DNA from: Tubiluchus corallicola
Taxonomy: Eukaryota > Animalia > Priapulida
Direction: 5' to 3'
NCBI GenBank assembly: GCA_030141605.1
Contig: JAQGDQ010000077.1
Coordinates: 372,001-436,000 of the forward strand
DNA length: 64,000 bases
Position numbers and translations under genes: made by a program. Shown in pieces: positions 736 to 64,000 of the stretch. Under the pieces are notes generated by a model that ran no database searches, was not told the DNA's origin, and saw only the letters and a program-made list of their open reading frames with translations. Each line of letters opens with the position of its first letter. The stretch's first letter is position 1.

Positions 736-30751
<30,016 letters not shown>

Positions 30752-36675: not shown

Positions 36676-39600
36676 ATGGAAGAAGACGAAAATGATCGAA
36701 TCCAGAAAGAATATGGTAGTCCTGATGAAGGGCCCCGTCGCAAGCCAAGTCAGACCTCAGTTAAGCGTGTTTCAGGAGACCCAGGCATTGAAATGCCTGA
36801 CAGTCCACGTGCTACGTTTAATAATGACTACGATAGTGACGATGATGATAAAAGCAACCGCAGTTCACCAGTGATGATACTGACACCAAGCAGTTTAGAT
36901 CTTAACAACAGCAATGTGGATATACCAGAAATGAGGATGACCGAGACAGAACCCAATAAGTTAGTGACTGTCACTGAGCAAGTGGAATTGAAGGCACAAG
37001 GAACTGAATACCAAAATAGTGATCTATTGCGTGTACCAAGGACATCGGGATCACCATCGGGATCACCGTCAAGCCTCACTCGCAGTGCAGAAAGTTCTTT
37101 TCGGCGACCCAGGTCCTCCGAGAGATCGGAACGCTATAGGAAGATCTCTAGCGGAGATAAAAGATTCTCAAGAGGGGAGGTAATCGAAACGATGAGTCTT
37201 GGCAGGTTCCAAAGAAAATCTTCTAAAGAATTGTGGAAATACGCTGCAGACAACATTGGCAGGATTAGATGTTTTTCTACAGGAGGAGAGGTGAAGTTAC
37301 GTCAAGCAGGCAGCTTCAGTAGCACGTTTGTGGATGGTACCAAGAAGTTCAACGTTGTGGCGGTGAAACCTTCATCAAGACAAAGACGGACCAGCGGTAA
37401 GAGTGATGAGGTAAATTTAATTTAATTCTTTAAAATTATCAGTGGCGCTGTAGATCAGAACCACATACCGGACATGCTTGTTTTAAATTTGTGCGCCAGG
37501 AGGTCAGCAAACCAACACCAATCCTGTCCTGAATAAGTCAGTCTGAGACTCATTACATAAATCAGAGTTATCACAATTAAGTTTAACAAGTATCTAACAC
37601 TCACACAAATGAATGAGTCACGTTTATTCATCTTTTTATTTACTTTTTTCCCTTGCTGCTTGTCTACCTGGCTTTACATGTAGAGGCATGAAAAGCAAAA
37701 ATCAAGATCACGCTAAGTTGAAATAGCTAAAATTTTTAAGATCAAATTACGGTCAACTAAGCTGGCGGTGAGTTTGAAAACTATTACCATTATAATCACT
37801 GGTGTCAAAGGTCATGATCACGGTTACCATTATAAATTTGAAAATGACTAATGCTAGTCATCAAGTTACACAGACACTAAATCTGGCATGAATATTAAAA
37901 TGAAAAGTCTAAGACCAGACTATGTTCAAGGAAAGCAAAAGACGGCTCTGTTTTTCTACTGGCCTTTTGTCTTATTGTTAAATGCATGTAGCAGACTGCT
38001 ATAACGCATTTACAGTAATGATATGCACACTAAATATCACCAGTCAGTCAGAATGTTCACCTTAGGGGCCTCTCTATCTAACCTGAATATGAACGTGAAA
38101 GGTGAAAAGCAAGAGGCAATGGTCACAAAGGGAAGTTAGGATTAGCGAATCTAGGCCTGTCTTTCTATTGAAGGTCTGTTCGTTTGTAGTGGCAGGCTAT
38201 TACAATTTTTCGTCTGTTTTTCCCCGATTTTAGAACATTGACGAGAATCCAGATGCACGAAACACATCTAGCGAAAAAGATTTCGACATGACCAATGGAG
38301 TTATTAATCCAGCATACGCCGATTCCCTGTCAGGTATTAGTGCTGTGCTTAAAGTTCGCTATGTAACAAATGGTCATTATGTAAAAATACAACATTAGGT
38401 AGTAAAAGGCGTTACGTGACAAATCAGATTATATTCTGGTCGGATGACAATCACATAACAAGTTTTATGTCATTATGTAAAATTTTTTTCATCATTGTGT
38501 AACAGCCATTTACTAACAAAAATGATGCATTGTGTAAAGGGGTCAATAATGTAAAGTTAGTCGTGGTTTATGGTTGAGTTTTGTCTAGTTCTGGGTGTGT
38601 TCTAAACTTCTAATGCGGGTCTGGATCGGTTTCAGTCGGGTCTAGATGTGGGTCTAGCTCCAGCTCTGTGTAGTCTGCTGTGAGGTTGACGTCTACCTAA
38701 GCTCTACGGTTGGTATGTCAGGGGTCTGGTCTGTTTGAGGTTAGGCCAACGTAGGAATGTAGACCCGCGCCTCGAACATTTCTGCACTATTCTATTTCCC
38801 AATATTTATGCTTGTTTATAAATTCAATAGTTATTGCCATGAGCTAAATATAAATTGAAGGAGAGAGATAAGGAATACCAGTTCTGATGGCGAGATGGCT
38901 ATAATTTTATTCTGGTCAGATCTCACTCAGGTCACTCACACACTCTAGTCATACCTGGCCTGCGGCAGACCAGGCCCCGGCCAGGGGCAGACGCACATCT
39001 CGAACAGAAAAAAGTGGACTCAGTCCAATAATTAGGTCACACCCAGACCGTGATGAGACCTAATCATAGACCAGCCCTACGTTGGCGTATTACACAATGC
39101 ATCATTTTATTATTTATTTACTTACGACTTTTTTATAAATTTTTTCGTCTTTTTCTGAATGCGGAATTATGATGTTTAGGTAATGTAGTCAGGTTTCTAA
39201 ATAGTGCTGTGTTTCTCTTGTTACAAGTAGCGCACTGCTGCTTCTGTTCTGTATTTCAGGTGGTTATGACGGAGATTATCAGCGCGTCCGTGACAGCGAC
39301 ATTCAGCAATCACTTGGAGTTGATGACTATGACGAATTGGCATCAAGATCATCTGATAACACAGTATTCTTCCTAACTACTGAGAAAAAAAATGTTCTTG
39401 TGTATGTAATTAAAATCAATGTAGTATATTAATGTAAATCTTTGGGCGGGATTAAAATCTACCTCACTATCAAGAATAATCTTTTAAGATGCAGAGATAT
39501 CTTAGTCAGACTCGAATGCTAAAGTAAACGGTAGTACAAAAATAAAAAACCAGAAGCCTTTTTTCTGGCGGTCATCTATCCACTCAGCTTTTGCTACGAA

Positions 39601-40222
39601 GCACATATTGCAATCATTCTGCAAATTTTGTCGCCCCTGAAAGACAAGGATGCGAATTGCAAAAACGCGGTTTCTCAGTGGTTTCACCTACCTTGCTGTC
39701 ACTTTTCGTCAAAGGTATTTGCATTCAAATTTCGAATCCGATTGGAAACCTGTAAATTCTGGCACGGACTGCCCATAGATACTAGCCCTATCTGAGATTC
39801 ATCTCATCACAAGGCGCTCTTAAATCTATTCTCATCAGGTACAACAAAATACCAATAAATGGGTCTTCGTAGGCGTATTTTCTCTATTTTAAACTCTTTC
39901 TCTATTCGAATTAGGGTTACTTTATCCGAATCATTGCAGATTTTAAGACAACACTGCTGCTTCAGCAGTTGTTTCTATTACCAGAGCTTAGACTCAGGCT
40001 AATTTACAGACCGGCCTCGGTCAGCAACTGTAAAACTAAGGCTTCGAACCTCTTCACAAAGGGTAAACATTAGCCACTTTTAAGTGGAAGACAAAAACTA
40101 TGTGAATGTAAAGCAGACGATCTCTGGTAAATTATACATACCTTGCCTATTCAGTCTTATTGTATTTTGATTTTTGAACACTGCCGAATACTTGCTTCTC
40201 AAATTGTGAATCCCCCACCGGC

Positions 40223-40290
<68 letters not shown>

Positions 40291-43200
40291 GTATATATAT
40301 ATATTATAGACACAGAGAGAGAGTTACAAACCGGTGTTGGGGATGTCTTCCACGTATATATATATATATAAATTATAGTTATGGGTTAGTCACCATAAAT
40401 GTTGCGGCTATAGTATTGTATGTATGTATAATATAATTTGATAAAAGAACGATCTTTTTCTATATTTCAGTGCGAGTTTGTCAAAATTATTTAGCGTCAT
40501 GTATGCATTGTTTCTGGTCTTCTTCTCTGTGGCAATAGTCATCACACCTCTGCTCATTACCAATCCGCCAAGATACAAGTACCTCTTCAACGTAAGTACA
40601 GTTACTGGTACTCTCAGGTAAATGTTTGCATCACTTCGTCGTGAGAACACTAACCCTGGGAATGAAGATTATCTGCTAGAAATTGATGCAGAAAGAGACC
40701 GAAAGTCAACGCAGAAGAATGCCACGAAGAAAATGATTATACTAAACATCGAGGTCTGACACACATTAACAGGACCGGATTTACCAATAGACCAAGCAAG
40801 CCCATTGGCCTAGGTCCTACGTGTATCTGGAAGGCCCACTGAAACTAATTTAATGTTTGGAGGGACACTAAAACTGTTACACTATCTATAAACGTGTACA
40901 ATAAGTATAGGCCTACAGCGGTCCATACATATTGAAAACTGAAAAAAATATATATATTAGGTGCTGAAACATGTCAACATTTCTATAAATTTTTGTCCCA
41001 CTTACGAGTTTGGCTTAGCGCCCACAAATAGGTAAATCCGAGCAGGCACACAAAGCGGGGCATGATTGTCAAAGGCTGTATGGGAATACAGATGGCGGTT
41101 CTATCAATCAAAGTATGTGTCCTTTCATGCAAATTAAATGCACCTTATCTTCAATGCCTGATATTTAGACCAAATAAAATCGTAAAAAATCATTAAAACA
41201 GTTCGAATGGTGAACTATAATCAAGGTCAGGCTATTATGCAAACAATATCTTATTTTTACCTTATGACTTCAAAGTATATCTGTACATCTACCAGCAAAA
41301 CAAAATTAATAACAGATTAATGCGTCTGTTGCGTTATTCGCATCTCAAACAATATTAATATTTACGTTTCTTATTTTATTTCTAGTCATTTTTCAGTGCC
41401 ATTTTCCTCCTGTCGATATTATGGCTGTCACTTTCCATAATTCGAATCAGAATATTTTTACAGAAGACAAAAGAAAAAGAGATGAAAAGTAAAAAGGTAC
41501 GTGGGCAGGAATGTTTGTAGGGATAATACTGGAGTGTATTGTGCGTTCACTATAGTAATCATATAAATGCACAAAATAATGCGTATTAAATTCGAGTCTG
41601 AAAATTTTTTCACCTGCACTGGGACTCGGACACAAGCCTTTTAATTTTTGAGCAACCATTCTGACCTTCCATGCAGACTCGCAAATTTTCAAATATATAT
41701 ATATATATATAAGCCATTATAGCTCTATCAACGAGGAATCATAGTCCATAGTGCATCAAGAATTGTTTTTGGTTTGTTTACGTTGACCTTAACGATCTTG
41801 AAGTGCTATTAACAAACTCAAATTGTCCGCATCGAATGTCTTAATCTGACATCTCGCATAATTCTATACTCATACCTGTTTGGTGACCTTTACATCAATA
41901 CTTAATAGATCAAATTCAGCAGTATTGTAATTTCATCAAATTTTTGTATGACATTTCTTGACATGTGTATACAAATTGTCCTACATTTGCTTGCACAACT
42001 AACAGCAAAAAGTTTGGGTGCACTACTTTGCACCATAAAAACGGCAACATATGGACTAGTGGTTGGAGTTGTGATTTGCGGAACAAGTCGAAACAACTGG
42101 GAAATGTATCATACCTAAAAGTAGTTACAATAGTGTACACTTATATAGCTAAATGTTTATGTTATGAATTGACTTAGTCATTTTCCTATAATTCTAAATT
42201 ATTAAGAATTAAAATGATTTCCTATAATTGACTATTCAGCTTAAAAACAAGCTTCAAGAGATACAGGTTGGTGATGAAGAATCAGCAATAAAACCCAATG
42301 AAACTATGGAATACTTTGGTTTTCAACATGGCCGCCATGCAGGAAGCACATTCCTTAAATTTGGAGCTGCATGTAAGTAGGGTATTGTTGGATAAGGCAA
42401 AATAATTAGTTTCTTTTATACAGTATGTAGGCCAATGTGGATTAAAAATTGTATAAAATATTACCGACATGGAATATATGAGTGATTATTGTAGCTTGAC
42501 TGAAAACAGCACCAATAAAATTAGGCTATACACACTGCTGTTATCTACATAAATGAATGAAAAGAAAACAAACGTTTTCACTGCTACTGGGTGACACAAT
42601 TAAACAGTGACACTGCTTGTTATCTGCAGCTGAGGCAACATATGTACACAACTTTTTAGGCCATTACCTATAAAAACTACAGAGAGAAAAACTCGAAACT
42701 AGGCTCATGTAAACATCAATCATGATTCAGAATAGAGGTTGATCAGATTAAAGCAATTTTTAAATAAGTGTAACGCATTAAATTTGTAGTATATATATAT
42801 ATGACTAATGTAAACTAGGCTCATGTTGCATTTGCACTTGCACTTGTTGATCTTGGATTTTAAACAGACGGCAGGATATCAACTGAACTTGGATGAGTCT
42901 TTTTTATCATTTCATATATATCATGTATTTCTAAAGTTCGATTTTCAGAACTCAGTTTAAATAAAACAGACTGCAACTCCACATCAAATGGATGGTCTGG
43001 TAGTAACTCAGGACAAACATCATGAATTTGCTTTTCCTCAGAATCACAGACTGGCTTTGATTGCAATTCAGTGTTGTTGTTATTATCTTTAAAATGATTC
43101 AAAAAATCTCCAGTGGTATCAGCCTTTTTTTGGTAGCATTTTCGAATTTCGCTACTTTCATAAATATCAAAATAGTCTAATATTTTTTTAATGGTGGTAT

Positions 43201-46200: not shown

Positions 46201-49200
46201 TTATATCATCTATTTGATTTTCAAGATTTACAGTAACATCATCCTCTTGTTCTTCAGTAATTTCAGTAGCTGCTCCCATAACATGTTGATATATTTTTTC
46301 TGGATCCACATCATTCAGGTTTTCGATCGGAGAGTACTGGTTTTCATCAACTGAACTAACAGATTGAACTTTTACAGGAGCATTCTTTTCATAATCTTCA
46401 ATTGCTTCTTGAATGAGCTCTTGTATAACAACAATATGAAAATTGAATACATCTCTCAAAGTGGCTGCAATAGTAGACTTCCCACTGCATTGCTTTCCAA
46501 CAAGAAATATCTTGATGGGTGCTTTTGGCAATTCTTCTGGAGTGGGAGGTGGTGGGGGAGGCTGAATTAGATGCCTAGCCCGCCCAATAATATTGCCAAG
46601 GATTCTATTTTTTTCCTGAATGATATCATAATCTAATTTACTGCTGATATTTGCCCATCGGTGTGGATAATTAATATACTGCATAAATTCTGCAGAATTG
46701 AGAAGATTTTGTCTGTGCAGCTCAGCTTCTACATTCCCTTCATCAACTTCCCCTAGTTCTGCTTCTTCTGGAATTTCACATTCAAGATCAGTCCTTGCAA
46801 TACTTTCAATTGGTTGCTCATTCATCAACAAATATTTCCACTCTGCCAGAAACTTTCTTGGTATGTCTTTATCTGTTAATTTGCGAAACTCTATAATCTT
46901 TATGACAAACTCCAGTATACTGTACACCATTTCTCTGCAAAACTGAATGTGTTTTTCATGTTTTTTAGCCATTGTTTCTGTCAATAAGGCCTTGTGAAGT
47001 TGCTGCTGTCGCTCAATTTCTGCAAACTGCTCCTCTTTAAGTTGCAATAATCGTTGCGTTTCCTTCTCCAAAGCAAGCCTATATTCTTGTTCTCTTTGCT
47101 CTTTATATTGTATATCTCTGTCTACTCTGAAACAAACAATATTCCTGATTGTAACAAAAAGTAAATCACGTAATCAGTAACCAACTGGATTATGATATTT
47201 CAAACTGCAGCGGAACCAAGAACAGAATGTAACCGTACTTTTGTGCCAATGTTTTTAACTACAAATCAAGTACACCAATGTTTAACGTGTTCTAATATTT
47301 CAAAGTTATATAAACAGCGCATAGAAAATATGAATAAATGAAACATTCTTCATAAATGAAATCAACACTGAACTTGATAAAAACACTGGTTTCACCTATA
47401 ATCTGCTCACAGAATGGCGGCTATTGCTTCATCCTTTGTCTGCTACCCACCTTCCAGGTCCCTCCCGAGATAGAAAAAACAAACCTTTTACGAGACTGGT
47501 TCTTCCAAATTAGTCAACTTCATAATTCACGCACTGGTGAATTTTGATTTCCATTTTTGCATTCAAAGATCATTAAGGCATTTCAAGTTTATTCTTGCTC
47601 GGGGTTATAGATTGTACAGTGTTCATTTTGTCCTGTCTCAGATGTGTTTAGTTTTATATGGGTTTAAGCTTGTGTGAATTAAACCTGTGTTTCACTCAGC
47701 AGTTTATATCACCTATCAATGAAGTAGCCAACAGGTAAAAATTGCAATTTTAATGCTCAGTTTAAATTTATATTTCCATTTAATATGAATTGTACCAGTC
47801 TAGTTCAGTGTTTTTTAAACTTTAAATTTTTTCGTCTAGCAATTTAAATTATTATTTTGATTTTATCATCTTGTACATTACTTAATTTTAGTTATCTTGT
47901 AGCTGTAATGTTTGACGAAAAGATCTGAGAATCTCAAAACATCAATAAAATAATCTCAATAAAATATGTAGTTATCATGTTTAAATGGCAGCAGTGGCAA
48001 ATTAAGGTTTCATGGAGCCCGGTGCAACTTTGGCACCCCATTTTTAGCGAGCGTTTGTAGGTGGCTGGTCCACTTGCACCCCCCCCTTAATACACCACTG
48101 TTTAATAGCACATTTTTTTTGTTGCTTCATGTAACAGTAATTGTCATTATTTTTCGTTCTAACTGTGCAACTAAATATTTTCGTATTATGCTAATAGCTT
48201 CCATTCACCTAGTATTGAGCCTTTATTTTGGAATTTTTTATCCAGAAAATGTGCTTGAGTTATGCGAGCTATATCAGGCACAGGCACAAAGTCCCACAAA
48301 ACTGGAAACTTGCAGTAAATAAAAATCCCCAACAGAGAAACATAATGCCCTTTATAGTCTCAAAGATTATAATATTTATAATTAAATATTATTGAATATA
48401 ATTAAATTTATATTATAATCTTTGAGACTAAAAAGGGCATTACGTTTTCCCCTGTTAATGATGACAAGTCTCAGGAGAATCTCTCGTATTTCAAATAAAA
48501 ATCTCCATTACACCTCTATGCAAACCTCCAAACTGGGCCAAGTTCATTTGATCACTTTAACCACGAGAATCAAAGTTACCTGTTTTGGATAATCTGTCCC
48601 TTCTCCAGGCGGGTTTGCATTAGATGGGCTGCAATACGCTGCTCCTCCACTGTCTGCCTCATCAGGTCAAGAACTAGGGATTCTTCTCTTTGTAACTTTA
48701 ACAACTAAAAAGAAAGTTACTTGTTCCATGATTGTCTCAATACGTTGCCCTTTCACCGAAGTGAAAAGTGAGCATGACTTCTAACAAGCTGCTGGATCAT
48801 ACAGAAACATTTTCTGCAATCAGTTCCATTTTGTATTTATTGCAAATTTCTATTTTTGCAACATTTACAGATTTCGCAAAGTGTGCATTAGATTATATCA
48901 GAACCTTGTTTTTATGTTTACAGCTAAGTACAACAATTGCAAGAAAAGAGTTGCAAAAAGATAAGGAAAGGTAATCTAAAGCTATATAAGGAAGGACTTG
49001 TAGAAATGATGATACATAGGAATGAATTCCTAAAATGTCAATGCTTTTAATAAACTGCAACAAGGTTGCAAAGCCACACAATATCTGGAATCACAGCGCA
49101 ATAAGACATACTTTCACTAATATTTATATGTATATATAATATATATATATATACAGTGGGCGCAGTTTATTAGATTCACGGTTAATAGACTCAATGGGTT

Positions 49201-52200
49201 AACTGATTCAAAAATGTCTGGTACGGGCCTATTCAAATGTATATAAAAACTGTCGGCAAATGACTCAAATTACTCCGCATAATTGGCTCAATATTTTTAC
49301 TTCATATGCTTAAATAAAACTCTTTTGTGTGACCAATGAGCTTTCACTATTTTTATGTCATCTTAGTTCATTTTTGTAAGCTATAATATACACAGAAACA
49401 ATCTTGTTAAGTACCGTTTTGTTTGTAAGCAACTACGTTTATCATGCACTAATATGTTAGCGTAATGGTTTTTGCTTTGAATCTGTTACCCGCTCAGAAT
49501 TGGGTCAAAACACATCAGTCCCAAAGTGAGTCTTTTAAGTGGCACCACAGGACTACCTAGTACCTTTATCCCAATCGAATCACAAGTCTTTTTTGCCCTT
49601 CTATCATACGGCAAACAGTTTAATGCTCGATTTAAATCTGAAAATCATTGTTTTTTTACCATTTCTTCTGCTCTTAGACGTTCAACCATAACTTGCTTTC
49701 TTCGCATTGTCCTAAGTTTCCTACCCTCCTCATCGTCAATGATCCTCTGGCGAATAGTCTAAATTAAATTTAAAACATGTTTGGAACCAAGTGAAATTCT
49801 AAATATAACTGTCCCAGGTCTTCTAATTTTATTATAATTATTTACTCGAAAAATTATTGTCCAATATACAGAAGGTAGACAATGAGCCATGTTGTTAGAC
49901 TTTCAAGCTAGTGCACTTTAGCACTTAACCAATTTACTTTATTTCCAAGAATTTTGAACACACTGGTACTTACTTGAATATATTGTCTGTTGCTAGCTGG
50001 CTGAAAAATTGTTGATCGAGTTCTACATGCTTCCCTATCCAGCTCGGGAAACAGTGCAAGGTTAACGTCTCTAGGTTTAAGCTTCTGTTCAAAAAGATCA
50101 ATATCCTGAATTACACGCCTTGCCTCTTCTTTCTTCTGTGAATCCAGTTTAGATACATTTGTTTTTATTGGCTTGTGGTACCATGGCCTTTTGCTAGATT
50201 TGCCAGACTTCCCTGATGCAATTTTATTTTCCACTACTGCGACATGTGCAACAAGTGAATCCATTGTAGCTAGACATCACAATTGTCAATCAATGCACAT
50301 TATACTATCTTTATACAATGTCAAGTTTTATTGATTGCAAAAATGAATTTGTATGGCCACAACCTATGGAAACTTATCTAGTTGTCATTTTAGTCACATA
50401 GTTAGCAGAAAAATAGTCACTCATTTCAGTCATTTGAATTGACTTTTCAACCAGCTGAGTAGGTCATGGTATACGAAGCCTAAGAAAATTATTTAGGCTG
50501 TCCAGTAAATGAAAAGCAACTTAATTCTAGGCATTTTCATCTAATGTGCTGCCACTTGCTATATCTCTATAATTACACACACATACACATTCAGACTAAA
50601 ACACCGTAGGACACTCTAGTGTGATGCCTGGTACATGTAATGCATAGGTACATGTACTCTATGGCAAAGTTTGCTTCTTCGTTTTGTCATAAAATAATAT
50701 TAACAAGTGAGCTGCGAAAGATAAATATATTACACTTAGATCTATTACTACGTAATATGTGTGCTTGCAAACCAAAATCGTACATAAATCGGCATAGTTA
50801 AAACTACGTTATGATGCTTCAAAGCAGAAAGCACCAAAAATTTCGTCAAATGTCGATTTTTTATTTTTAATGAAAACAAATGCTAAATATAATGGACTTT
50901 TATATTCTAGCATCAGATTATCAGGAAAATGTCCAAAAAATACTAAAAATCTAATTTCATAACTCCTTACCCACTTTTCTGTCTTGAAACCAGTACTGCA
51001 ATTGTAAAAAACGTGCATTTTCTAACTCTGATTGTAGCTCATGGAAGCAGCCATTATGCTTCGGGTTTTCTCTGACAAGGCCAGATCTTTGTCAGGAAGA
51101 GCCATCTACTGGATTTAAACATAACTTCAATTTGCTCTTGTAAAGTCCATAGCAACCACACTTTCGTACGTTTACTAAGTGTTTTGTAGAGATATGACAA
51201 AAAACAATGGAGGTTTATTGTCTTTTGCAATGTCTTTTTGGAAGTTTATTACAGCACTGTTAGCTAGTATTTTTTTATAGTCGTTATCTGTTTTTAAAAT
51301 GATCTATTCAAAACATTAACATTCCGTTCCCATTAATTTTAGCAGATTCTGCATCAGTACCCTGTGTTCTAATGTAGCTATTTTTTAAACGATTATTTAA
51401 GGTTATTAAATTTATTTCGAGCTATTTTGTAACTTCTATAACTGGTTTGACTTTTCATTTTCTCTTAGAAATCGTTTTTGGTTTCACTTAAAATAATAAT
51501 TCTGAATTACTCCATGCGCTTTCAGATTTTTGTCTATAACAATAATTCCAGAATATGCTTTGAGAATATAGTTTTATACGGAGCATGTATAATATTCTAT
51601 ATCCAGAGAGCATTCTACATTGTTAATTAAATATTATATTTCTCACATAGTGTAGTTCATAATAGTTGGTTTATTTTAGTAGTTCGCCTTACCAAAATTG
51701 CTAACAGCAATTACTCTAACTGCAATCAGTAATAATGCAACATTAAAATTTCCATTTCGGTCACGCGAGCAACGTTCGCATAGAACCACACTGTCTTCTT
51801 GATTCACGTTGCCACGCAACAAATGTAGTCGCCGACTCGCCATCTATAGTCGCTTGTAGGAAATAAGTAAAAAATTAATAATTATTGTAAGAAAATTAGC
51901 ATAAATTTAATCTCTTACATTCAGAAATGTTTGGTTTTTGTTTCTGTTGCAGTTTTTTGCTTCGGTAACATGATACATCAAGGGCTGCTTTATGCTAAAG
52001 CTGTGGAAACGAATTCTTGTGCAGACTTTACGGATCATTTAAAGCCCTTGCTACATTTCTTATTCAGTTTTCTACAACTTTTCTACATATTTAAGCGATC
52101 AAATGTAAGTTTTATGAATAACAGTTTTGTACGTGCCATTTTGTCTACATAGTCAAATGCGTTTCTCTCTCATTTAAACCAGATTCAACCAAAACGAGGT

Positions 52201-55200
52201 ATATGTGAAAAAATTCAAAGAAGTAGGGCTGAGTCTGGACTTTAACCTTTCCAAATGTCGGTTTATTCCCACCCTAAAACTAATACTAGGAAATATTAGA
52301 TTTGTTGCCGAGTTGTTAAATTATTATTGAATTGAGGTCTGTAGGTTTGACGGTTGATTTGTTAGTCAGTTTGTTGCTTGGTTAGTTATTAAAATATTTA
52401 ATTACTTTATCACTTACATAGCTAGATAGTCAAAATTAATTAATCAATTAATTAGTCGATTAATCAATTAATTAGTCAATTAATCAGTCAGTCGGTCGGA
52501 TCAGTGTAATCAGCGGTCAGTCCCTCAAATGGTTAATTAGTTATAGTTAGCAAGCGGTAGCTAGTTAATTAGTTAACTACTTAATATTAATTAATTAGTT
52601 ACTTAGTCACTCAGTCAGACAACCATCAGTGAGCAAGTGCGTGAGTCAGGCAGTCAGTCACTTAGTGAGTAAGTGAGTGAGTGAGTCAGTGAATGAGTCA
52701 GTCAATCAGTGATCCAATCAGTCAGTATGTCTGTTATTGAATTCCTTCGTTTGGTCATATTGCATGAATTCCCTTGTGCAGTTGTTCAATTAATTATTAA
52801 AATATTAATTTTAGTTAATCAGTCGGTCAGTAGTCAGTCTATTAGTATATGTATCTGTCATTTAATTAGCGAAGTAGTTAATTGGTTAGTTAATTAGTTA
52901 CTTAGTTATTTAACTGGTTGGTTGATAGGGGTGGTCATTCAGTCAGTTAGTTGGTCATTTGGCTGGTGAGTTGGCTGGTTGGCCAGCCGTTTAGTCTATC
53001 AGTCAGCTAATCTTTAAGTTTATTCGTTTGCTTACTTCTTTGCTTGGTTTGTTTTATAACAAGCGTCTGTTTGTTTGTTCAGGCATGTGGTGTAGCACGA
53101 ATTTCTTTTCCCCGGTGACAAAAACTAATCTGCTCACTCTTATTGTCACTTAATGGATTGAAGAGTAATTGATTATGCATTATTACAGGTAATTATTAAT
53201 CAAGATAAAGCTCTCGCCCGATTTGGAATGATGCATGTATTAGCAACGAATCTTTGTGTCTGGTTTGAAACTCTGATTCACGAGGCTGTAGTTGAAATAT
53301 ACCACGATCATGACATGACTGTTAAGGATCCGCTCATTAAAGCATATTTCAAGGCTTACGCAGAAGAACACGATATTAGTAAGTTGAAAGCTCAAGTAAT
53401 TTGTGAATTTTGATCATTGCTGTCCTTATTAATTAATGTTAAGCTTGTTTTAGCTTGTTCCAGTACTTCAGCTTTGAAATTACTTTTAATTATACGTACT
53501 TTATTTCATTCAACCTGAACAAGGAGAAATAATCAATCCATGTTCCATGTCTTTTTAGACGTAACAGAAGCCACGCCTCCCAGTAAGGATCCTTGTGATA
53601 CTTATCAGAACGGCTCTTACAAAAGCGCCATATCCGAAGTCGAAGCGAATATAGCTGTATACCTGTATCCACTTACTATCGAGTACAGCCTCATCTCTGC
53701 AGGCATATTCTACATGATGTGGCATAACGTGGGGAAGGTACGTTATTACTGTACAGTGTTTCACAAGTCACTATAGATTACATTTTCTATATTATTTTAA
53801 CAAACAAAGAAAAACTTTTGAAAATTGGCACAGATGAACAAAAACCTTGGAGAATTCTTTTGGTCTAATGAGACGAAAATCTGAAAAGAACTACTGCACT
53901 TTGCTATTGCTATTGATATTTTGGTATTTCCATTATCTTCTTCAGCAACTTCAAGAGCTTAAATTCAGAGACTGGTCCCAAAGCCTAAAAAGTGTTTCTA
54001 TCATGTTCTGGGGCGTTTTTCAAAGTGGGTAACATAGCCAGTCTTCTCAATTTGATATGCTGAATCCGAAAAAACTGCTACCGGCTTAAAAAATTAACCG
54101 AAAATGGTCAAAAAACGCAAAAAAACAAAATAGTTGCAAAGTTTTTATGCACACAATGTAAATCAAAACAAGCTCCAAAAACTTAATATTAGGAAGCAAT
54201 GATGTCATCTATTCCAGGGCCTTTGAAGTCCGTTTCTGTTACTTTTTATGCAAAAATGGTCGTTATTTTCAAAATGGCCGCCGCACAACAAGAAATTATG
54301 CCGATCAATTAGATTACCTGTTTTACCAAAATATTTCTTATAAAAAGAAAAAGCAAGTCAGTTTTATTAATTCGACCTTGTTGAATCTAAATATTGCTAG
54401 ACCAATAAAAGGATGCAATAAGTTATAAGCAAAGAATAAAATGGCCACCAGGTCCCTGACAGCAGAATGGTGAAATTGCTCATGTCGTCTAAAAGTTATG
54501 AAACTCACCACAATGCTAGAACCTGTCAAGGTTAATAATTTATTAATTTTGGATATGGAGTCAATAAAAAAAATCTTCCAATATGGGCATCGTTTTCAAG
54601 ATGACAAACAAGATGGCTCGCTAGTATATCATATATAGCCTATATCTCAATTGTTATAAAAGATAAGATGATGATTTTATGTGTCTAAATATAGGTTTTA
54701 AAGGTCAAGCAATCCACAAGTGATGCAAACACTTATCTGCTCTAGCAGCTAAGATTCGACTGTCAAAAACTAGCAATTATAGCTATCGATTTTGTCGGCA
54801 TTTTGAAAGTGGCGGCAATATTGGATGATTTATTTTCGATTGGTCTCATATCCAAAATGAATCATCTTGATGGGTTTTAGCATTGTGCAGTTTTGTAACT
54901 TTTAAATGAAATGAACAAATTTTTCACCGTTTTGCTCGATAATCTGGCGGCCATTTGACATTTGACATTTGACCTTATTTAGAATTTCAAGATTCTTGCT
55001 AAGATGGTTGCAGCCACGTGACTAATATATTAGCTTTATTGCCTGTCCTAAGGCAGTGAGGATGATGATTTTAGCATTTAAATATATGATGATTTTAGTA
55101 TTTAAATATAAGGTTTCACTGTAAATGTTATAGAATAGTATCCAATGCATCTGCCACTTTTAAGATGGTCAACAAGATTTCTGTCGCTAGCACATGATTT

Positions 55201-58200
55201 TGGTGTGTGAATGTAGTGTCAATGTTAAGGAATCCACCTCTGATGCTTAAAAGCATCTATAACATTGCCTATTTGGGATTTCAAAATGGTTGCAGCAACA
55301 CGTGTTAACTACATTGCACCTCTACTGGAGATAGGACGATGGCTTTAGTATTCAGATATGGATTTTAACGATCAAGGAATTAGGATAGTACCTATTTTTA
55401 TTATTCTTACAGAACTGTAACAACAATATAATGTATGCACATCAGACATTCAATGCAAAGTTTGATAAATGAGCCATCAATAAGAAACAAACAGTTCAAG
55501 TAAGAATTTATAGACCCATCTTCCTGGTATACAGTTAACATATATACATATAGATAACATTACCACCTGTCACATTCACCACCACAGTTCCACAGAGCGG
55601 TGCAAACAAGACTTGCTCGGACAATTTATATCTGCCGCGGCACCCGTTGGCTGGCCGGGTGCTACATTATTTAATAAGTTGCTGGCACGCTTCAGTTCTT
55701 CACTCATGCCCAGTGTGGTTCTCACGTCACCTCTTCCAAGCCCAACAGTACCTGCCTGTTATATTACTCCTCTGGTGTGTCCCAACAGTGCGGCATATGT
55801 TGAAGAAATTAGCTCCAAAAAAACCTTCCCTTTCTTGTGAACAGGTTTTTATATGCTTTGCAAACTGGTAGCTTTGTGAAACAGAAGTACAACAAAACGT
55901 TCGCGCACAGGCATGAGTTCAGTCAACTGTTTTGCTAGTTAAATAGGTGTTTTTTGTTATAATGATATACAGATGATAATGACAATGTTCCGATAGTCTA
56001 CAAAATTCCCAATGTTAAATGTCGAATAATGTCAATGTTGAAAATGTTAATTTATCTCCTTGGCTTAGTTCATAAAATATTATATAAAATTAAACCAAAC
56101 CTGGGTGGAACCTCGATGAAACACCTTCGTTTTTCTTTAAGCAAGTGACAAATGACATTTGCTGTCTATTACCTGCTATTTACTTTTCATCCTTTGGAAA
56201 TTCTGTTATACTAGATATCCAGAGAAAGGCTGACGTTGTACTTATTTTAAAAGAGAGAAAAGTTCAAATATTAGTAACCATAGGCCCGTATAATTGACTT
56301 GCATAGCTTGTAAAATAATAGAAATGTGTGTTGTCTAAAATACTTTCTGTTATCAACATGAATATAATTTAATCTCAAAACAGCAACATGGGTTTTTATC
56401 ATGCAGACCTACATGTACGCAGCTTCTTGAATGTATTAAAGGTTGGTCCATTGCACTAAATGATAAGATGTCTGCTGATACAATTTATATTGAATGCCAA
56501 AAGGCTTTTTGTACTGCATGTCATAAAAAATACTTCTCGAGTTAAAATCATTTGGCATTCCACCAAGGCTTGCTATATAAATGGACCGAAGCATTTATTA
56601 TGCGTAGAAAACAAAGACTGTGTGTAGCGCTATGTCAGAGTATGTTACTGTCCGCTCTGGAGCCCTCAAGTGTTAGGGCTACTCCTATTCGTTCTGTCTA
56701 TCAATGACTTGTCTGACTGATGACGATATGTCGATGATGTCTATCTAACACTAGACAAACTTTTCAAATGGTCAAAGTAATGACAGTTAAATACGTGTGC
56801 ACTTCTAAATTCCCTACTGTTTTGCATATAGGAAGTAAGAATCCTCCTGCACCTAGTGTATTGCTACTTTGCTGGTAGACGAAGTAGTAACAATGTTACA
56901 TAACGTTGGATTCCGTTGTACGTCACGTTCCGGTGTCGAGATTTACGTAAACCTATGTGAAAGTTGGTGTAAAATCGAATGTGAATTCATTAAACACTCA
57001 AATAAATTTCTTTTAAAATATATCTATGTCATGTCGCGTGGCAACTCTAGCAGCTTAGATCTACTGAGTCTGAAAAGAATGATGGTATTTTAAAAATCAA
57101 AAAAGGAAAAAAAACAAATGGCACAGTGTTAAAAAAACTCGGGTAAAGTTGATTTCATACGAGCAAAAGTGAGAGGAGAATATTAAAAGGAGGAAAATGC
57201 ACGAAAAGGCTGATATATAGACAGTAGACAGGCTAAAAAGTATGTGCGCACATGGGTGTGATGTATTGTGTTGAGGTTACCGTCGACGAAAGACGGTTAC
57301 CTATTCTGTGAGTGAAAAGATGTTCCAGAGTCAAAATTGTTGATTAGCCGCATGTTGACATATAGGCCTAAGATAAGTATCTACCAACTCTCTAATTATC
57401 CCCACCATCATTGAATAAATATATCCAAAGCATCGTGACTGTGTAAGTCTATTGACTATATACACCAGGCCCTGTATTAAGTACCAGGCATGCCATATAT
57501 ACTGCAATTTGACGTTACATGCAAATAGTTTGACACTAATGTTGTAGCCTAGGCTATTTATTAGCGCACCTGGCAATGATAAGATACTGATTAATGTAGT
57601 ACAATAATCAAACTCAGAATACATCTGAGCTACGTCTGCTGTCAATTTTTAAAAACAAATTACTTCATTAAAGCCTTTTATGGATATAATGAACAAGTAA
57701 TGGCAGATTACGAATGAATGAGTCCTAATACCATTCAGATTTTTAATCCGTATAGCTAACAAGTATGTTGCTACCCAAAGGCTACCGTTAGCGGAAAAAA
57801 ACGAAGCGTGTGGGAGATTTTTAAATCTCACGTTCAAACAATAAAATAGCAGAAATAAGAACAACGAACAACCTACATACGTATCTTTGTAATTATTGCT
57901 ACATAGCTTACTTATCTGTGTTTTTCACATCATTATTGTACGATTTTTTACATGCCAAAGACCTACCTGTTTGGGCTGTTTTTATGTTTTATAGTACAGT
58001 GTCTATGCACTGCGTCTTTTAATAATATGTGTACTGTTTAGACGAAAGTAGTTTAATGTTTATGCATTTTATAATTCGTACTCGAAACCTGAAATACTTC
58101 ATATATAGCAGTCTTTTTGGATGTATGTAGTTAGCTACCGTATCTAAAGCTTTGTTATAGAGTGTGTTTTCTTAGTGTTGCCAGGGTAATCCAATGATGA

Positions 58201-58996
58201 AAGTTTTTGTTTTCAGATGCATCTACAATGCAAGACACATTCCTCTAGTCATGATCACAGCCCACTGTCAGAAGCCCATGAAGCGGACTGCCATGCCACA
58301 CACAAAGGCCTATTTTCTGGTCTGTTCGTCTTAGCAATGACCTTTATCTCTGTCATTGTCTTTTTTGTGTTTCTCGGATCTGATAATCTTCATGATGAAG
58401 GGAAAGCAACAGCTACTAACTATTACACTGAAATTAGCCTAAATGCAGTCAGTGGTATTTGCTGCATGGTGGCTTTCTTCTATACTTCTAAGATGCATGT
58501 TGATCCACATGCTATCAAGTTCTTAGATGACTTTCTTTTATTGATACCACTTCCAGCTTATTACTTAGTCTGCACTTTTGGTATTATCGCTATCATGTTC
58601 ACTCATGAAACTGAGATGGGGGCGTCGTTGGTGACATATATTGTGGCGTTGCTTCAAGTGACAGTACAGACCACTTTCATCATGGATGCCTTGAGGCGTT
58701 GCTCCAACACAGTACAACTGCGTCGGGTCAAGCCTGGTCGTGGACTCGTCATGTTTTTGCTGTTGTGTAATGTCTGTCTGTGGCTAGTGGGTAGTTTTGA
58801 GATTAAAGAAGCGAATAGTAAGCCAATTCAGACTGATTTTTTCAACTATTTGAATTGGGTAATAATTAGTAACCTGTGTGTGCCATTAATGATTTTTTAT
58901 AGGTTTCATTCTGCTGCATGTTTAGCTGACATTTGGCAAGATGCCTACACAGCCGCAGACGAGACATGTGTACATGAGGAATCAGATTACTTATAA
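36676..58996 (+). CDS. Otop: Otopetrin-family proton channel (10 coding exons, about 880 aa; isoform using terminal exon A)
   Basis: Phase-compatible GT-AG exons 36676-37410, 38234-38333, 39260-39401, 40471-40591, 41386-41496, 42240-42372, 51953-52104, 53189-53378, 53559-53737, 58217-58996 (sum 2643 nt). Motifs: LFSVMYALFLV, RHAGSTFLKFGAAFFCFG, FSFLQLFYIF, ARFGMMHVLATNLCVW, YLYPLTIEYSLI, DCHATHKGLFSG, QVTVQTTFI, KPGR, FLLLCNVCLW, PLMIFYRFHSAACLADIW. Joining of the three N-terminal exons rests on splice phase only. Confidence 0.9.
40229..40283. repeat. (TA)n microsatellite
   Basis: Uninterrupted TA run; source of the IYIYIY ORFs. Confidence 0.95.
40770..41046. mobile_element. Probable hAT-type MITE
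   Basis: CAGGACCGGATTTACCAATAG versus ATAGGTAAATCCGAGCAGG imperfect inverted termini. Confidence 0.45.
42860..51105 (-). CDS. SPEF2: SPEF2 (KPL2)-like sperm flagellar / motile cilia central-apparatus protein, 5 exons, about 1621 aa, nested in an otopetrin intron
   Basis: Minus-strand exons 51105-51027, 50269-49974, 49758-49660, 48704-48580, 47126-42860 with GT-AG and matching phases (sum 4866 nt). SPEF2-like segments LMRQTVEEQRIAAHLMQTRLEK, FLKRPDHKQEFVSQWQADFNSISEDMRNDEEVK, LMQAEIDRF; adenylate-kinase-like P-loop GKQCSGKST and DGFP; C-terminal EF-hand-like DQNFTGFLSKAEY. The first exon is the least certain. Confidence 0.88.
47993..48100. mobile_element. Short hAT-type MITE
   Basis: CAGTGGCAAATTAAGG ... 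CCTTAATACACCACTG imperfect TIRs; GC-rich island in an AT-rich intron. Confidence 0.5.
48331..48456. repeat. Short fold-back inverted repeat
   Basis: TAATGCCCTTTATAGTCTCAAAGATTATAATA versus TATTATAATCTTTGAGACTAAAAAGGGCATTA with an AT-rich loop. Confidence 0.85.
51143..51156 (-). promoter_or_regulatory. Candidate RFX X-box upstream of the SPEF2-like start codon
   Basis: AAGTCC-AT-AGCAAC (GTTGCTATGGACTT on minus) about 40 nt upstream of the ATG at 51105; a second near-palindromic GTTGCC-A-CGCAAC lies at 51808-51820. Confidence 0.4.
52430..53010. repeat. Degenerate tetranucleotide-rich tract (AGTC/AGTG/AATT/GGTT)
   Basis: Runs such as GTGAGTGAGTGAGTCAGTGAATGAGTCAGTCAATCAGT and TTAATCAATTAATTAGTC. 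Confidence 0.8.
55560..55910 (-). mobile_element. Degraded C-terminus of an Academ(X)-like DNA transposon protein
   Basis: Minus-strand broken frames give ERFVVLL, KKG, STYAALLGHTRGVI*QAG, EACQQLIK, GCRGRYK, ASLVCTALWNCGGEC. These resemble the XPG-like end plus Cys-rich finger recalled for AcademX proteins. 53965-55550, with repeated AAAATGGC/CAAGATGG motifs, may be its non-coding end. Confidence 0.5.
56070..56840 (+). mobile_element. Degraded CR1/L2-group LINE reverse transcriptase fragment
   Basis: Broken frames KADVVLI, SNHRPV*LTCIACKIIE, QQHGFLSCRPTCTQLLEC, DTIYIECQKAF, SG(A)PQ-VLGLLLF, INDL match non-LTR RT motifs NYRPISLT, QHGF, DFxKAFD, SGVPQGSVLGPLLF. Confidence 0.85.
58217..58996 (+). 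CDS. Otopetrin terminal exon A (C-domain, TM7-12)
   Basis: ttttcag|ATGCATCTA phase-0 acceptor; 259-aa ORF containing the family FYRFHS motif; AATAAA at 59464. Confidence 0.93.
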   Translation: MHLQCKTHSSSHDHSPLSEAHEADCHATHKGLFSGLFVLAMTFISVIVFFVFLGSDNLHDEGKATATNYYTEISLNAVSGICCMVAFFYTSKMHVDPHAIKFLDDFLLLIPLPAYYLVCTFGIIAIMFTHETEMGASLVTYIVALLQVTVQTTFIMDALRRCSNTVQLRRVKPGRGLVMFLLLCNVCLWLVGSFEIKEANSKPIQTDFFNYLNWVIISNLCVPLMIFYRFHSAACLADIWQDAYTAADETCVHEESDYL

Positions 58997-60839
58997 AAAA
59001 GCACTTCATTGAAACCATAAATTTGGAACTTAATGTGATTTTTATTACCTGTAAATGATGAGTGATTCTGAAGGTCAGATTGTATGTCTGTAATTTTATG
59101 TCTCGATGTAGTAAATTTGTCTTATAGTATTTCTTTATAACTGTTCTTGTATTAAGTATTATTTTTATCACTACTGAGCGTTGAATGTCTTCCATTTAAT
59201 ATAATGCAGACTCTAAAAACTTTTAAAAAATTATGTCAACAGTTTATCAGTCTCTTATTCATGCATACATTGACAAGTGCAGTGTCTTCCTTTCTTTTCT
59301 TATTCGCGTATCTGCAACTATTCCTTATTCGTATTTACAAAAATGTTCTAATTTCGTTCAGTCAGGTGGTGCCACAGACATACAATACTTTCACAGGATG
59401 TAATAGCATAATATACATTAAAACATGTATATATTGGCTGCGCTCATATCTATGGTTAAGGCAAATAAAAATGATTATGCTTATTAAGTCAGAGCCCAAG
59501 TCGAGAATAAGTATTTTGTACTTAGGCCTAAAATAGTTATATCATGTAAGCTAAATAATTTCGTTATAATTTTACTGCAATTTATTTAAACATTATCTTT
59601 CTCTTCCACATGTAGTTAATAATTAAATCTGAACTTATTAATTAATTACATTTATAGTTGAATATGCAGTATATTTATAAATGAAATGCTAAAAATTGGT
59701 TTTATGTTGTTTTTCCTGTGGCTTCAAAGACTGCTTACACTTACATTTTGAACTTCAAAAAAACTCATGCTGATGATTATATTAAGATGCATTTAGGTTT
59801 CGTTGATATAAACTTTGCTCGACTACAAAAGAACTTTTCGAATAACATGCCAAAATAACGTATATGTACGTATATGACGTGAATATTTTTTACAATAATT
59901 ATTTTCATTACATAAATTTCTTAAACACTGACAAGAAGCAAAAATTCTTGATATTCTGTCCAATTTTTTCAACTTACCTGTTCGGTAACACAGTTTTAAA
60001 TGTGAATTGAAATTGAGTGAAGTCATGCTTATACCCCAGGCCTCTAGACATTGGGGAAACAAATATCAGTGAGAACGAGTGAATGACTAGGCTATTCGAG
60101 GTGACCGCCTTTTGAAGGAGCTTTGACTTATTACTCTTCAAGTCTGGGGTATCGGCGTCAACAGTGCCGGTAATTGTACATTGGCTCATTGGGCATGCGC
60201 GTCTACTGACAAGGAAGATGAAGCTTTTGTAACCTTGTACGGTTAGAGGGGAAGAACGGGCATTTTAAAGTATATCCCAAAAAACGTTCTATAAAAAATT
60301 ATGTTACTCAGCATTGCACTTACATGTTTGAAAAACGTATGTAATTGGAAAGAAATTCTTAATATTATAACTTATTCGTGCCAACTGAGTAGCGCCATTG
60401 TATCACGATTACAGGATGCACCGCCGCTTCACCAAAAAGCGCATTATTGATGTTATTTGCAAATAAATAGTAATTTATACTTTCGCTTAGTTAACTTAGC
60501 TGGCGAAGAGTGTGCTACGAATGGTGTGATTATTTTGTCAAACTTTACGAGATGTTATCTAAAGTAGTTTCAACCGACTTAATTAATTATTATCGCTAAA
60601 TTGTCCGCAATAACCACCATTCAGTGTTACTGCTAAAGCAAGCCCTGTGTGCAGTAAAGGCAGCATATAAATGATACAAAATTTCAAGACCAATTTTTTA
60701 AGCTTTTTTAGAGCATTTTCTTGTCCTTCTGATGAAGCAGTCTAAGTCATCTAAACAGCCACATAATACTATAGCAATAATAAGGAAATATAAGAGTATA
60801 GATACTAGCTAAACCCCGCAAAGAATTTTGGGCATAAAC

Positions 60840-61260
60840 TCACAACAACTTACATCACACCACCAACACCATACCACCCACACCACACCACACAACCACC
60901 TACCACACCACTCACAACACACCACCCACACCACACCACACAACCACCCACCACCCCACTCACAAGACACCACCCTCACCATACCACAACCACACACTAC
61001 CCACACAACACACCACACCCACCGCACTACACCAAGACCACCCTCATCACACCACACACACCCTATCACTAACACCATAGCACATCACCCACAACATACA
61101 CCACACTACACCAAAAGCACACACAACTACCACCCCACTACACCATCCATAGCACAACACCCACAGCACACTCACCACAGCACACCCACTACATCACATT
61201 GTGATGATGACGACGACAATGATGACGACAACGACACCACAGCACCAACACCAACAGTAC
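60840..61260. repeat. (CAC/CCA/ACA) low-complexity repeat
   Basis: Almost only C and A, with tandem CACCACCCACACCACACCACACAACCAC units and a short GAT/GAC run. Confidence 0.9.
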
Positions 61261-61639
61261 AGTATTACGGCGAAACCATTCAAAGCATTTTCCACAAAAT
61301 CGAAACTGTGTGCTATAACAAATGCTCTTAGTCTGCCTACCAATGATTAATAATGTGTGGACATGCCATATAGTTTTGTTTGCCGCTTCTCTGATGATAA
61401 TATGCTAACAGAATTTACACATAAAATCTATATACCACTGTAGAACGGCGCGTGACAACAATGCCTGGAACAGCCACGAAATTTCTCAATCTCAAAGACA
61501 ATGAATGTTACAAATAGCATGCAGGTGGGGGTGGGGGGGGGTTGAAAAAGGAGTTTGAAATACACGCTTGCTGTTTCGTCTAATGGACATCTCTCCTAGT
61601 GAAACCTTCGGGTGTGAGTGTGCATATTTTTTCTAACAT

Positions 61640-62050
61640 GCCCAAACAGTTGCAGAAATTGAGTTTTTCTAGAGGGCGGTTGAGCAGTTTTTTGCAAAAT
61701 TTGGGTGATTTCGTCCGGGAAAACGCCTTTTGCGAGACGCCGTGGCCCTCCCGCGAAATATAAATATGACTATTACACCCACGTTGAAGGGCTATTCAAC
61801 CATTACCAGCACCACCCACGGCCCATTCCGGATCTATAGAAATAAGAGGTATAAGTTTTGCAAAAAATGGGCAAAAAATGGCCATTTTTGGAGGTTTTTC
61901 GCCCCCCCCCGTTCCTCCCGGTGCGCCCGATTCGAAAAATAAAACCCCAATGGCAAATCTGTGAGTCCGAACCTTTCGTTTGATGTATAGGTCGTCGAGA
62001 ATGGTGCCGTCGTTGGAACTGTAGCCTCGTCGATTATATATTTATATATG
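61640..62050. repeat. GC-rich probable interspersed repeat fragment (unclassified)
   Basis: Abrupt CpG-rich segment ending in a TA-rich tail; no convincing ORF; single copy in the window, so repeat status is inferred. Confidence 0.35.
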
Positions 62051-62075
62051 CTAGCGAAATTAATATATACGATTG

Positions 62076-63525
62076 ACTGCAATACTACAATACAAAATAA
62101 TTTCAGAAAAAAAATTTTGGTGACAATGTTTATTTTCGTTTAGACATTTTGGGACAATTGACGTCTAACATAATGTCAATCATTTTCGTTGACTGCCCAG
62201 TCAGCGTGCAAGTTATTTCACACACCCTGCAGCAGATACGTACGGGTCATTTAGCTACAACTCCGTCTAGCACTGTTATGAAAAATGCTCAACTTTTCAT
62301 TAGTTAGCGGGAGAAATATTAGCCTGCTTCTAGATTTTATTATTGTCAATTGAAATTGCAATTGAACTGGTAAAAATATGTAGTCTAGCTTCGTTTGTAG
62401 GAAGAAATGCACAGTGCATACGTCTATGAGTTGCTGATCAAACCATTTTGCAATCAAAAAAATACGCAATTTAGTTTAGTTTATGACTTTTGTAAATTAG
62501 ATAAAAACAACTATTTGATTAACTTTAAATAAGGACAAAACAATGTTTTCTTTCCTGGCTAGTTTTTTAAACCTCAATGAGATCTTCACAGTCAAAATTA
62601 ATGCAAATTAGGGTCAAAACTTATATTATACGTCAATATAATATTAGCTAATTTTACGCTCTTTTTCTGGTTATAATCAAGGTTAAAAGATACAATTGGG
62701 ACTTATGTGACTCGGGCGTTCAATATAAGAGTCGTCTATGGAATGGAACAGTCAAATTTATTCCATTTCCGTAGCTTGACAAACGGAAAAACGTAATAAA
62801 TCTTGCAGACGAGCACATGATCAATTAATGTAGAAAAATACATCGCAGGCTTGATGTTCGTAGTTTATTGGCAAGAGAGACTTAATATTTTTGGTGCTCA
62901 TTTTTTGTTAATTCCGTTCTTAAAATAGCTGCTGCTCTGCAAATTTGTGTTTATGAAAAAGAGCAATCTGTTTATCTGCTGATTGACATTAGTTGTGACT
63001 GTCATGTTGTTTAGTTTAGTCAGCTTAGCTTCGACAGTTGTCCTGCGTGAGCTGCTGTCCCGAATGCTACTGAGCGTTCTTACTTTGCAAGGGGGGCGGA
63101 GCGATAGACCAATACGTTTGACGTCAATTGGAACAGACACAAGTAACTTGTATATTACGCGTTTCATTACGTAAAATAAGTAACTGAATTGATCACTTGG
63201 ATTACTTAAGTGCACTTCATTATATATAAATTATATATATATATTATGTTATATTCATATTAATATGTTATATTATATTAATATAATAATAACATAATAT
63301 TATATTGGTGTATAATATTATGTTATGTTATATTAATATAATTTATATATAATGAAGTGCACTTAAGTTATCTAAGTGATCAATTTAGTTAGTTATTTTA
63401 TGTAATCAAACACGTAATATACAAGTTGCTTGTGTCGGTTCCAATTATCCCAAATGTCTAAAAGAAAAAAAACATTGTCACCAAGATTTCTTTTCTGAAA
63501 TTATTTTGCATTGTAGTATTGCAGT
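62076..63525. mobile_element. Fold-back (long inverted repeat) element with a nested insertion in its left arm
   Basis: 62076-62159 plus 63130-63240 together form the reverse complement of about 63335-63525; AT-rich centre. Confidence 0.85.
62160..63125. mobile_element. Non-autonomous TIR element with 4-bp AATT target-site duplication
   Basis: Termini GACGTCTAACATAATGTC / GACCAATACGTTTGACGTC; AATT at 62156-62159 and 63126-63129; the opposite arm of the host repeat preserves the empty site GGGATAATTGGAAC. Confidence 0.75.
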
Positions 63526-63629
63526 GAATATCCTTATATATACATATATATATATATATGTATATATAAGCTCTGAAGTCGTGGTTGAAAGACCCAATAA
63601 GCAGTATGTGGGTGTTTTTTTCGTTTCAG

Positions 63630-64000
63630 ATGAATCAGCAATGTAAACAACATCCAGCTACTCATGATCACAGTCCTTTGTCAGAAGCTCACCAAGCGGA
63701 CTGTCACGCCACCCATAAAGGTTTATTCTCTGGAATATTTGTCCTGGCAATGACTTTTATGTCAGTTATAATATTCTTCGTGTTTCTTGCATCTGACAGC
63801 AGAGCTGACAGGGAAAAAGCAACACAAACTATTTACTACACGGAGATAGTTTTAAACTCAGTTAGCACTATTTGCTGTATAGCGGCTTTCTTCTACACTT
63901 CTAAGATGAATGTGGATCCCCATGCGATTAAATTCTTAGATGATTTTCTTTTATTGATTCCACTTCCTGCTCACTATTTGATTTGTACTTTTGGCATTAT
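63630..64000 (+). CDS. Otopetrin terminal exon B (duplicated C-domain exon, truncated by the window end)
   Basis: gtttcag|ATGAATCAG phase-0 acceptor; open to the window end (MNQQCKQHPATHDHSPLSEAHQADCHATHKGLFSG...FLDDFLLLIPLPAHYLICTFGI); 97/123 aa identical to exon A by manual count, no indels; absent from the ORF track, presumably because it has no stop in the window. Confidence 0.9.
   Translation, partial: MNQQCKQHPATHDHSPLSEAHQADCHATHKGLFSGIFVLAMTFMSVIIFFVFLASDSRADREKATQTIYYTEIVLNSVSTICCIAAFFYTSKMNVDPHAIKFLDDFLLLIPLPAHYLICTFGI

Follow-up and report, generated by a model that had tools for sequence, protein, structure and literature searches.

Can a single otopetrin gene join one N-terminal half to more than one C-terminal half? 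The question is raised by a 64,000-nucleotide (nt) stretch of DNA from the priapulid Tubiluchus corallicola (contig JAQGDQ010000077.1, positions 372,001 to 436,000, assembly GCA_030141605.1), called the window here, whose positions are used for all gene coordinates. The end of an otopetrin proton channel gene is present in it twice. Terminal exon A (58217..58996, + strand) encodes the cytosolic linker, transmembrane helices (TM) 7 to 12 and the stop in 259 codons plus stop, while terminal exon B (63630..64000, + strand) holds the first 123 codons of such an exon (linker, TM7-TM9) and continues without a stop as far as the window reaches. A first interpretation made from the letters without database searches (the sequence-only reading) proposed that the donor at 53737 may splice to either exon. 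The follow-up analysis showed that this is the likely arrangement, with one otopetrin gene whose C-half copies would be used as alternative last exons on donor 53737 to give a constant N-half and a variable C-half.

On recomputation, the coordinates of A and B given by the sequence-only reading, the TTTCAG|ATG acceptor in front of both exons and the 97 of 123 identical amino acids without indels were all found to be right. Both acceptors have the same phase and 276 of the 371 nt were identical. The many synonymous changes that had been remarked on were also recovered, as the codon comparison showed 49 identical codons, 48 with silent differences and 26 with residue changes. These residue changes included six of the nine positions of the extracellular TM7-8 loop (54-62), where one histidine was lost and two arginines gained between A and B, seven in the cytosolic linker and seven along TM8. 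Both exons matched the Pfam Otopetrin family PF03189 above its curated cut-off of 27.8 bits (A with an expected value (E) of 4e-59 and 201 bits, B with E 1.5e-21 and 77 bits). Structure prediction, which covered exon A, produced six long helices with a predicted local distance difference test (pLDDT) score of 87.8, and the fold matches at ranks 1-12 were all otopetrin chains (TMq 0.53-0.70). In addition, the Q-N-Y triad (Q151, N185 and Y228) together with R229 and H231 aligned with zebrafish Otop1 (6nf4). The Pfam match, the six-helix model, the fold matches and the Otop1 alignment identify exon A as a whole otopetrin C-half (TM7-12) encoded by one exon, and none of the sequence and fold tests sets the protein apart from other otopetrins. 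A motif scan placed candidate poly(A) signals 3' of exon A at 59417..59469 (+ strand; ATTAAA at 59417 and AATAAA at 59464).

The gene begins at about 36676 with an inferred ATG, far upstream of the region treated in the sequence-only reading. Nine exons with AG/GT ends (36676-53737, all on the + strand) produced an open N-part of 621 codons that ends at the phase-0 donor 53737|GT and reads without a stop into exon A, giving 880 residues in total, and likewise into as much of exon B as the window contains. Exons 1 to 3 were placed by frame and splice sites alone. Exon 1 (36676..37410) is an open reading frame (ORF) from the inferred ATG to a GT donor in an open model and encodes a low-complexity cytosolic N-terminus, and exon 2 (38234..38333, no homology support) and exon 3 (39260..39401) encode the N-terminal tail. 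Exon 4 (40471..40591) encodes TM1 with a profile match at an independent E-value (iE) of 3e-4, exon 5 (41386..41496) TM2 with a weak profile match (iE 0.11) and AG/GT ends, and exon 6 (42240..42372) a loop and the start of TM3 (iE 4e-4). Exon 7 (51953..52104; TM3-TM4), exon 8 (53189..53378; TM5 and the 5-6 loop) and exon 9 (53559..53737; TM6 and the common phase-0 donor) matched Pfam Otopetrin positions 9-60 with 30 bits, 62-107 with 48 bits and 161-199 with 41 bits, respectively, all above the cut-off. Exon 9 carries a Y-P-x-x-I-E-Y motif, present in 98 of 158 fetched homologs, with a conserved TM6 glutamate that we infer to be the counterpart of zebrafish E267.

Selection on exon B was assessed from its comparison with A. 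Differences were found at 61 of 82 synonymous sites and 34 of 287 non-synonymous sites, corresponding to proportions of 0.74 (pS) and 0.12 (pN; Fisher p ~3e-27), and third codon positions held 60 of the 95 nt differences. The ratio of non-synonymous to synonymous substitution rates (dN/dS), a comparison that the sequence-only reading had suggested, was about 0.04 and points to purifying selection, the value being rough as dS is saturated. When 93 random substitutions were simulated, at most 75 of 123 residues remained identical in 5000 trials compared to the 97 observed. Overall, the codon comparison indicates that B has been under long purifying constraint, and it is a comparison that cannot date a recent loss of function. 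The splice acceptor of B (63610..63629, + strand) ranked first of the 517 AG sites in 53760-63990 and that of A seventh with the same matrix, which was built from only 8 acceptors of this gene. Run X1, one of the DNA sequencing runs described below, showed a C/T variant at 63627 in the B acceptor that keeps the YAG, and both differences listed inside exon B in this run were synonymous. Beyond 20 nt upstream, the flanks of A and B were unrelated (4, 4 and 2 matches per 20).

The search for a second N-half was carried out in the window with the gene's own N-part and with a profile made from 50 of 180 fetched homologs, without the window sequence. As a control, the profile ranked the 8 real otopetrin frames first of 2842 window frames, the weakest being the TM2 exon (iE 0.11). 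Between A and B (58997-63629), tblastn had a best E of 0.24 and the profile a best iE of 3.5-3.9, so neither search found a copy of the N-domain exons there, in agreement with the sequence-only reading. The profile search also found no second N-half anywhere in the window, so within its bounds B lacks one of its own. Contig depth showed that 60257-63175, between A and B, is a high-copy repeat of about 3 kb. An AT-rich inverted repeat with 135-base arms was observed at 63126-63446, ending about 180 bases upstream of the B acceptor; it could be a pre-mRNA hairpin or a mobile-element remnant.

DNA contigs of the sequencing runs X1, X2, X4 and X5 were aligned to the window, X2 being from the same sample as X1, from which the window itself may come. 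In run X1, A and B were on separate contigs with depths of 174 and 159, respectively, compared to 184 on exons 7-9; with separate contigs of comparable depth, B is not an allelic duplicate. At 85% likeness, no additional contig of single-copy depth was present on exons 7 and 8 (190 and 194 vs 184), which is a weak test of a second N-half because the 5' half of the third copy described below was also invisible at 85%. Run X5, from a relative about 8-9% diverged, covered parts of exons 7, 8, 9, A and B, and its 278 nt on B had 23 differences and no gaps (91.7% identity). Compared with the 3' half of A at 80% likeness, the X5 contig of B kept the frame up to about codon 175 in its visible part. 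This visible continuation past 64000, where the sequence-only reading had allowed for stops or frameshifts, showed no gap and no stop. A paralogous X1 piece over codons 211-254 had 18 differences from A, no gaps and an unchanged TM12 Y-R-F-H-S motif; 8 of the 18 differences were listed and 6 of the 7 listed codon changes were silent. By elimination, this piece is probably the 3' end of B, and a fourth copy would also fit. Run X4, of low depth, left 63593-64000 without cover, and such a hole proves nothing. A further run, X6, presumed to be RNA, matched repeats alone and is evidence neither for nor against expression.

The sequence-only reading had also suggested that more copies may lie beyond the window. 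On the 3' half of A, run X1 gave three extra pieces at 80% likeness (depths 167, 180 and 178), two of which overlap TM12 with different tails, and there are therefore at least two copies besides A. A 630-base piece was tried as B and rejected, since it did not align on B and read S-M-D-A where B of run X5 has S-N-T. Because it ends where a 931-base piece starts, the two were read as one third copy, C. The contig pieces accordingly place a third C-half copy outside the window. The X1 path of copy C lacks 14 bases (A positions 58852-58865), resulting in a frameshift and a stop before TM12. As a 53-base piece of X2 covers the same spot without a gap, copy C is likely heterozygous for a null (frameshift) allele. 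The TM12 motif was intact in both paralogous contig pieces. Both extra tails continue in a reading frame shifted by one base against the tail of A, which indicates that the end of A is different and shorter. In the TM11-12 loop, copy C has a histidine at residue 200 vs the asparagine of A, and the same base occurs in an X4 piece that is possibly B. Exon A itself showed an allele in runs X2 and X4 (58833-58834) that changes residue 206, also in the TM11-12 loop, from threonine to arginine.

For the splicing of the gene, the following mechanism is proposed. The last exon, with the entire C-half, was duplicated long ago within one otopetrin gene. Donor 53737 would join A when the transcript is cleaved at the poly(A) signal near 59417-59469, and read-through past A would let the same donor join the stronger acceptor of B, so the choice of exon would depend on whether poly(A) cleavage after A or read-through to B prevails. 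An inverted-repeat search found no credible docking site and no convincing competing RNA pairing; one A-rich site of 23-24 nt (54550-54573) can pair with A as well as with B and sits in a repeat. In a structural model, protons pass from the TM6 glutamate to the TM12 histidine and the C-barrel swings against TM1 of the partner subunit (PMC11343839). In the gene described here, the histidine and the moving barrel lie in the variable exon and the glutamate in the shared exon 9, and the predicted proton-transfer pair common to the isoforms would take its glutamate from the shared half and its histidine from the variable half. Since proton transfer needs both residues in that model, a conserved C-half would need an N-half partner, and for B this would be the N-half of this gene, the only one at hand.

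The A and B isoforms are predicted to differ in gating because the two exons differ most in the extracellular TM7-8 loop. In mouse, C-domain linker swaps altered OTOP3 activation and two such C-domain loop swaps left OTOP2 gating unaltered (PMC9348849). Zinc potentiation is set by the TM11-12 loop (PMC10101688). Mixed dimers are a speculation and would need co-expression in one cell. A wider proposal, put forward tentatively and with some doubt, is an array of at least three interchangeable C-half exons in birth-and-death turnover (A, B, and C with its null allele), whose channels would be tuned by way of the TM7-8 and TM11-12 loops and could form mixed dimers.

Several observations weigh against the reading of A and B as alternative last exons, beginning with the fact that both joins, 53737>58217 and 53737>63630, are predictions from genomic DNA. 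B may have been functional for long and now be silent or decaying, with the gene making the A form alone, which is considered improbable. As the frameshift form of the sister copy C demonstrates, a copy of this exon can decay, and with 46 neutral changes 90 residues on average and as many as 101 would stay identical, so a recent loss of B is compatible with the A-B comparison. The 3' half of B lies outside the window and was read in part, with the assignment of its contig piece inferred and codons ~124-135 unseen. The X5 identity on B is also near that of an intron-containing piece (90.1%), and X5 is for this reason a weak test of current constraint and mainly demonstrates that B is present. 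Silence of B is opposed by its acceptor, the strongest in 10 kb, by the silent X1 variants and gap-free X5 alignment, and by the TM12 motif kept at its probable 3' end. A smaller chance is given to the expression of B without this N-half, either as a half-size protein of six helices that starts at a separate promoter or non-coding first exon, or through trans-splicing. An ATG opens both A and B, which keeps this stand-alone form in consideration, 38 of 158 fetched homologs consist of the C-half only, and the N and C halves resemble each other in structure (10.1101/542308). The nine C-half-only entries looked up were, however, all unnamed assembly ORF calls, and the named one, from Priapulus, lies on a 1540-base contig; the C-half-only entries are for these reasons probably exon fragments. 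The proposed conduction path also needs the TM6 glutamate (PMC11343839), which a lone C-half would not bring.

It is comparably improbable that B is part of another, complete otopetrin gene, through a misjoin across the repeats or with an N-half of its own outside the window. The repeats that separate A from B are not bridged by any contig, so the two exons are linked through the assembly of the window. The 5' half of the third copy was unseen at 85% likeness and diverged N-half paralogs could be missed likewise, and whole-gene tandem duplication is the usual otopetrin route (PMC3038909). Against a separate gene, the 64 kb contain no second N-half, an N-half located upstream could reach B only by splicing over both a same-strand ABCC gene and the whole otopetrin gene, and exons 7 and 8 lack an extra contig, weak as that test is. 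Finally, an allelic or assembly duplicate of A, which the sequence-only reading had named as a possible source of B, was refuted and retains almost no probability, given the 74% nt identity, saturated synonymous sites, unrelated flanks, separate full-depth contigs and the presence of both copies in X5. A single gene with alternative C-half last exons thus remains the favoured interpretation.

Otopetrins such as the insect OtopLc-like proteins, vertebrate OTOP1-3 and Caenorhabditis elegans OTOP8 share the same twelve-helix, two-half plan and a like C-half fold. The nearest named sequence was a Priapulus caudatus fragment with 47% identity, which grouped with A and B in a tree of 62 C-halves (support 0.98), and the ESM Atlas showed generic otopetrin clusters only. 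Isoforms of mouse Otop2 differ in non-coding first exons, with no swap of a whole C-half (PMC3038909), while those of fly OtopLA have alternative starts and short exons, and no whole C-half swap was found in the available text (PMC8713817), whose supplementary isoform figure may bear on this. The C-halves were identical within each of two otopetrin RefSeq isoform sets. A literature search, which left subscription literature mostly uncovered, showed no otopetrin with swappable C-half last exons among the matches listed, and none was described in the available parts of PMC2268672, PMC3038909, PMC8713817 and 10.1101/542308. Among 106 of 196 fetched proteins with at least 450 amino acids, no pair shared an N-half and differed in the C-half, a weak test with mostly 50%-identity cluster representatives. 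Stomoxys entry P0004, which has two C-parts, was rejected because the same letters are repeated and it looks like an annotation artefact. A metagenome scan gave 3 loci from 46 candidates, which were discarded as spurious, each with one match of 31-33 amino acids, no other otopetrin similarity and 50% GC. ORFs with the C-half only (protein P0044 and its cluster) were also observed on contigs up to several megabases, which suggests that a single-exon C-half may occur in other animals.

Drosophila PGRP-LC, CG42235 and Pip likewise join common 5' exons to one of several tandem terminal cassettes (PMC6191721, PMC9013439). As in these 3' variable regions, the window holds one common exon set with a single donor and homologous same-strand, same-phase cassettes under selection. 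For cassette completeness, A has a stop and candidate poly(A) signals, and the probable end of B, short of its stop codon, is in contig pieces assigned by elimination. The Drosophila cases were shown in RNA and have multi-exon cassettes and competing RNA pairings, whereas in the window, read from genomic DNA, a single exon that encodes half a channel makes up the cassette. In engineered OTOP2/OTOP3 chimeras, swaps of C-domain parts on a fixed backbone change activation rate, pH threshold and zinc potentiation (PMC9348849, PMC10101688); these are single-loop laboratory swaps, in contrast to the natural whole-half swap predicted here. The sequence-only reading knew of no description of this architecture in otopetrins, and this part of it stood, as no otopetrin case was found among the matches listed. 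The layout itself is already known from other genes, and what is likely new is its occurrence in an otopetrin.

Other genes were also observed in the window. Intron 6 of the otopetrin gene contains an antisense SPEF2 gene (42860-47173, - strand) with the Pfam domains SPEF2_C, SPEF2_D5 and ADK and one very large exon. Small antisense exons in the same intron (48560-50264, - strand), with a start near 50264 and no credible Pfam match, could belong to SPEF2 as 5' exons or form a second nested gene. Homolog searches with SPEF2 and with exon 8 gave no matches. Upstream on the same strand as the otopetrin gene, an ABCC/MRP-type gene has homologous tandem exons at 11731-11922 and 12075-12266 (+ strand; 53% amino acid identity over 64 residues), a candidate mutually exclusive pair. 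The mutually exclusive exon of Drosophila MRP is probably the same exon as this pair. Drosophila MRP is among the genes listed with mutually exclusive exons (PMC9013439). An intron of the ABCC gene contains a frameshifted hAT-like transposase remnant (22726-23831, + strand) with a weak Pfam match (E 0.015).

How gating and conduction are split among the otopetrin N-half, C-half and their interface is still argued (PMC9348849, 10.1101/542308, PMC11343839). If the proposed splicing is true, the animal would make natural channels that differ in the C-half alone, while the TM6 glutamate and the dimer surface on TM1 would stay the same, and these would provide a clean comparison that laboratory loop swaps merely approximate. 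If the array is true as well, it would be a natural domain-swap series for the share of each half in gating and conduction. In addition, some of the otopetrin gene models annotated in invertebrates as a C-half by itself may then be unrecognised alternative last exons.

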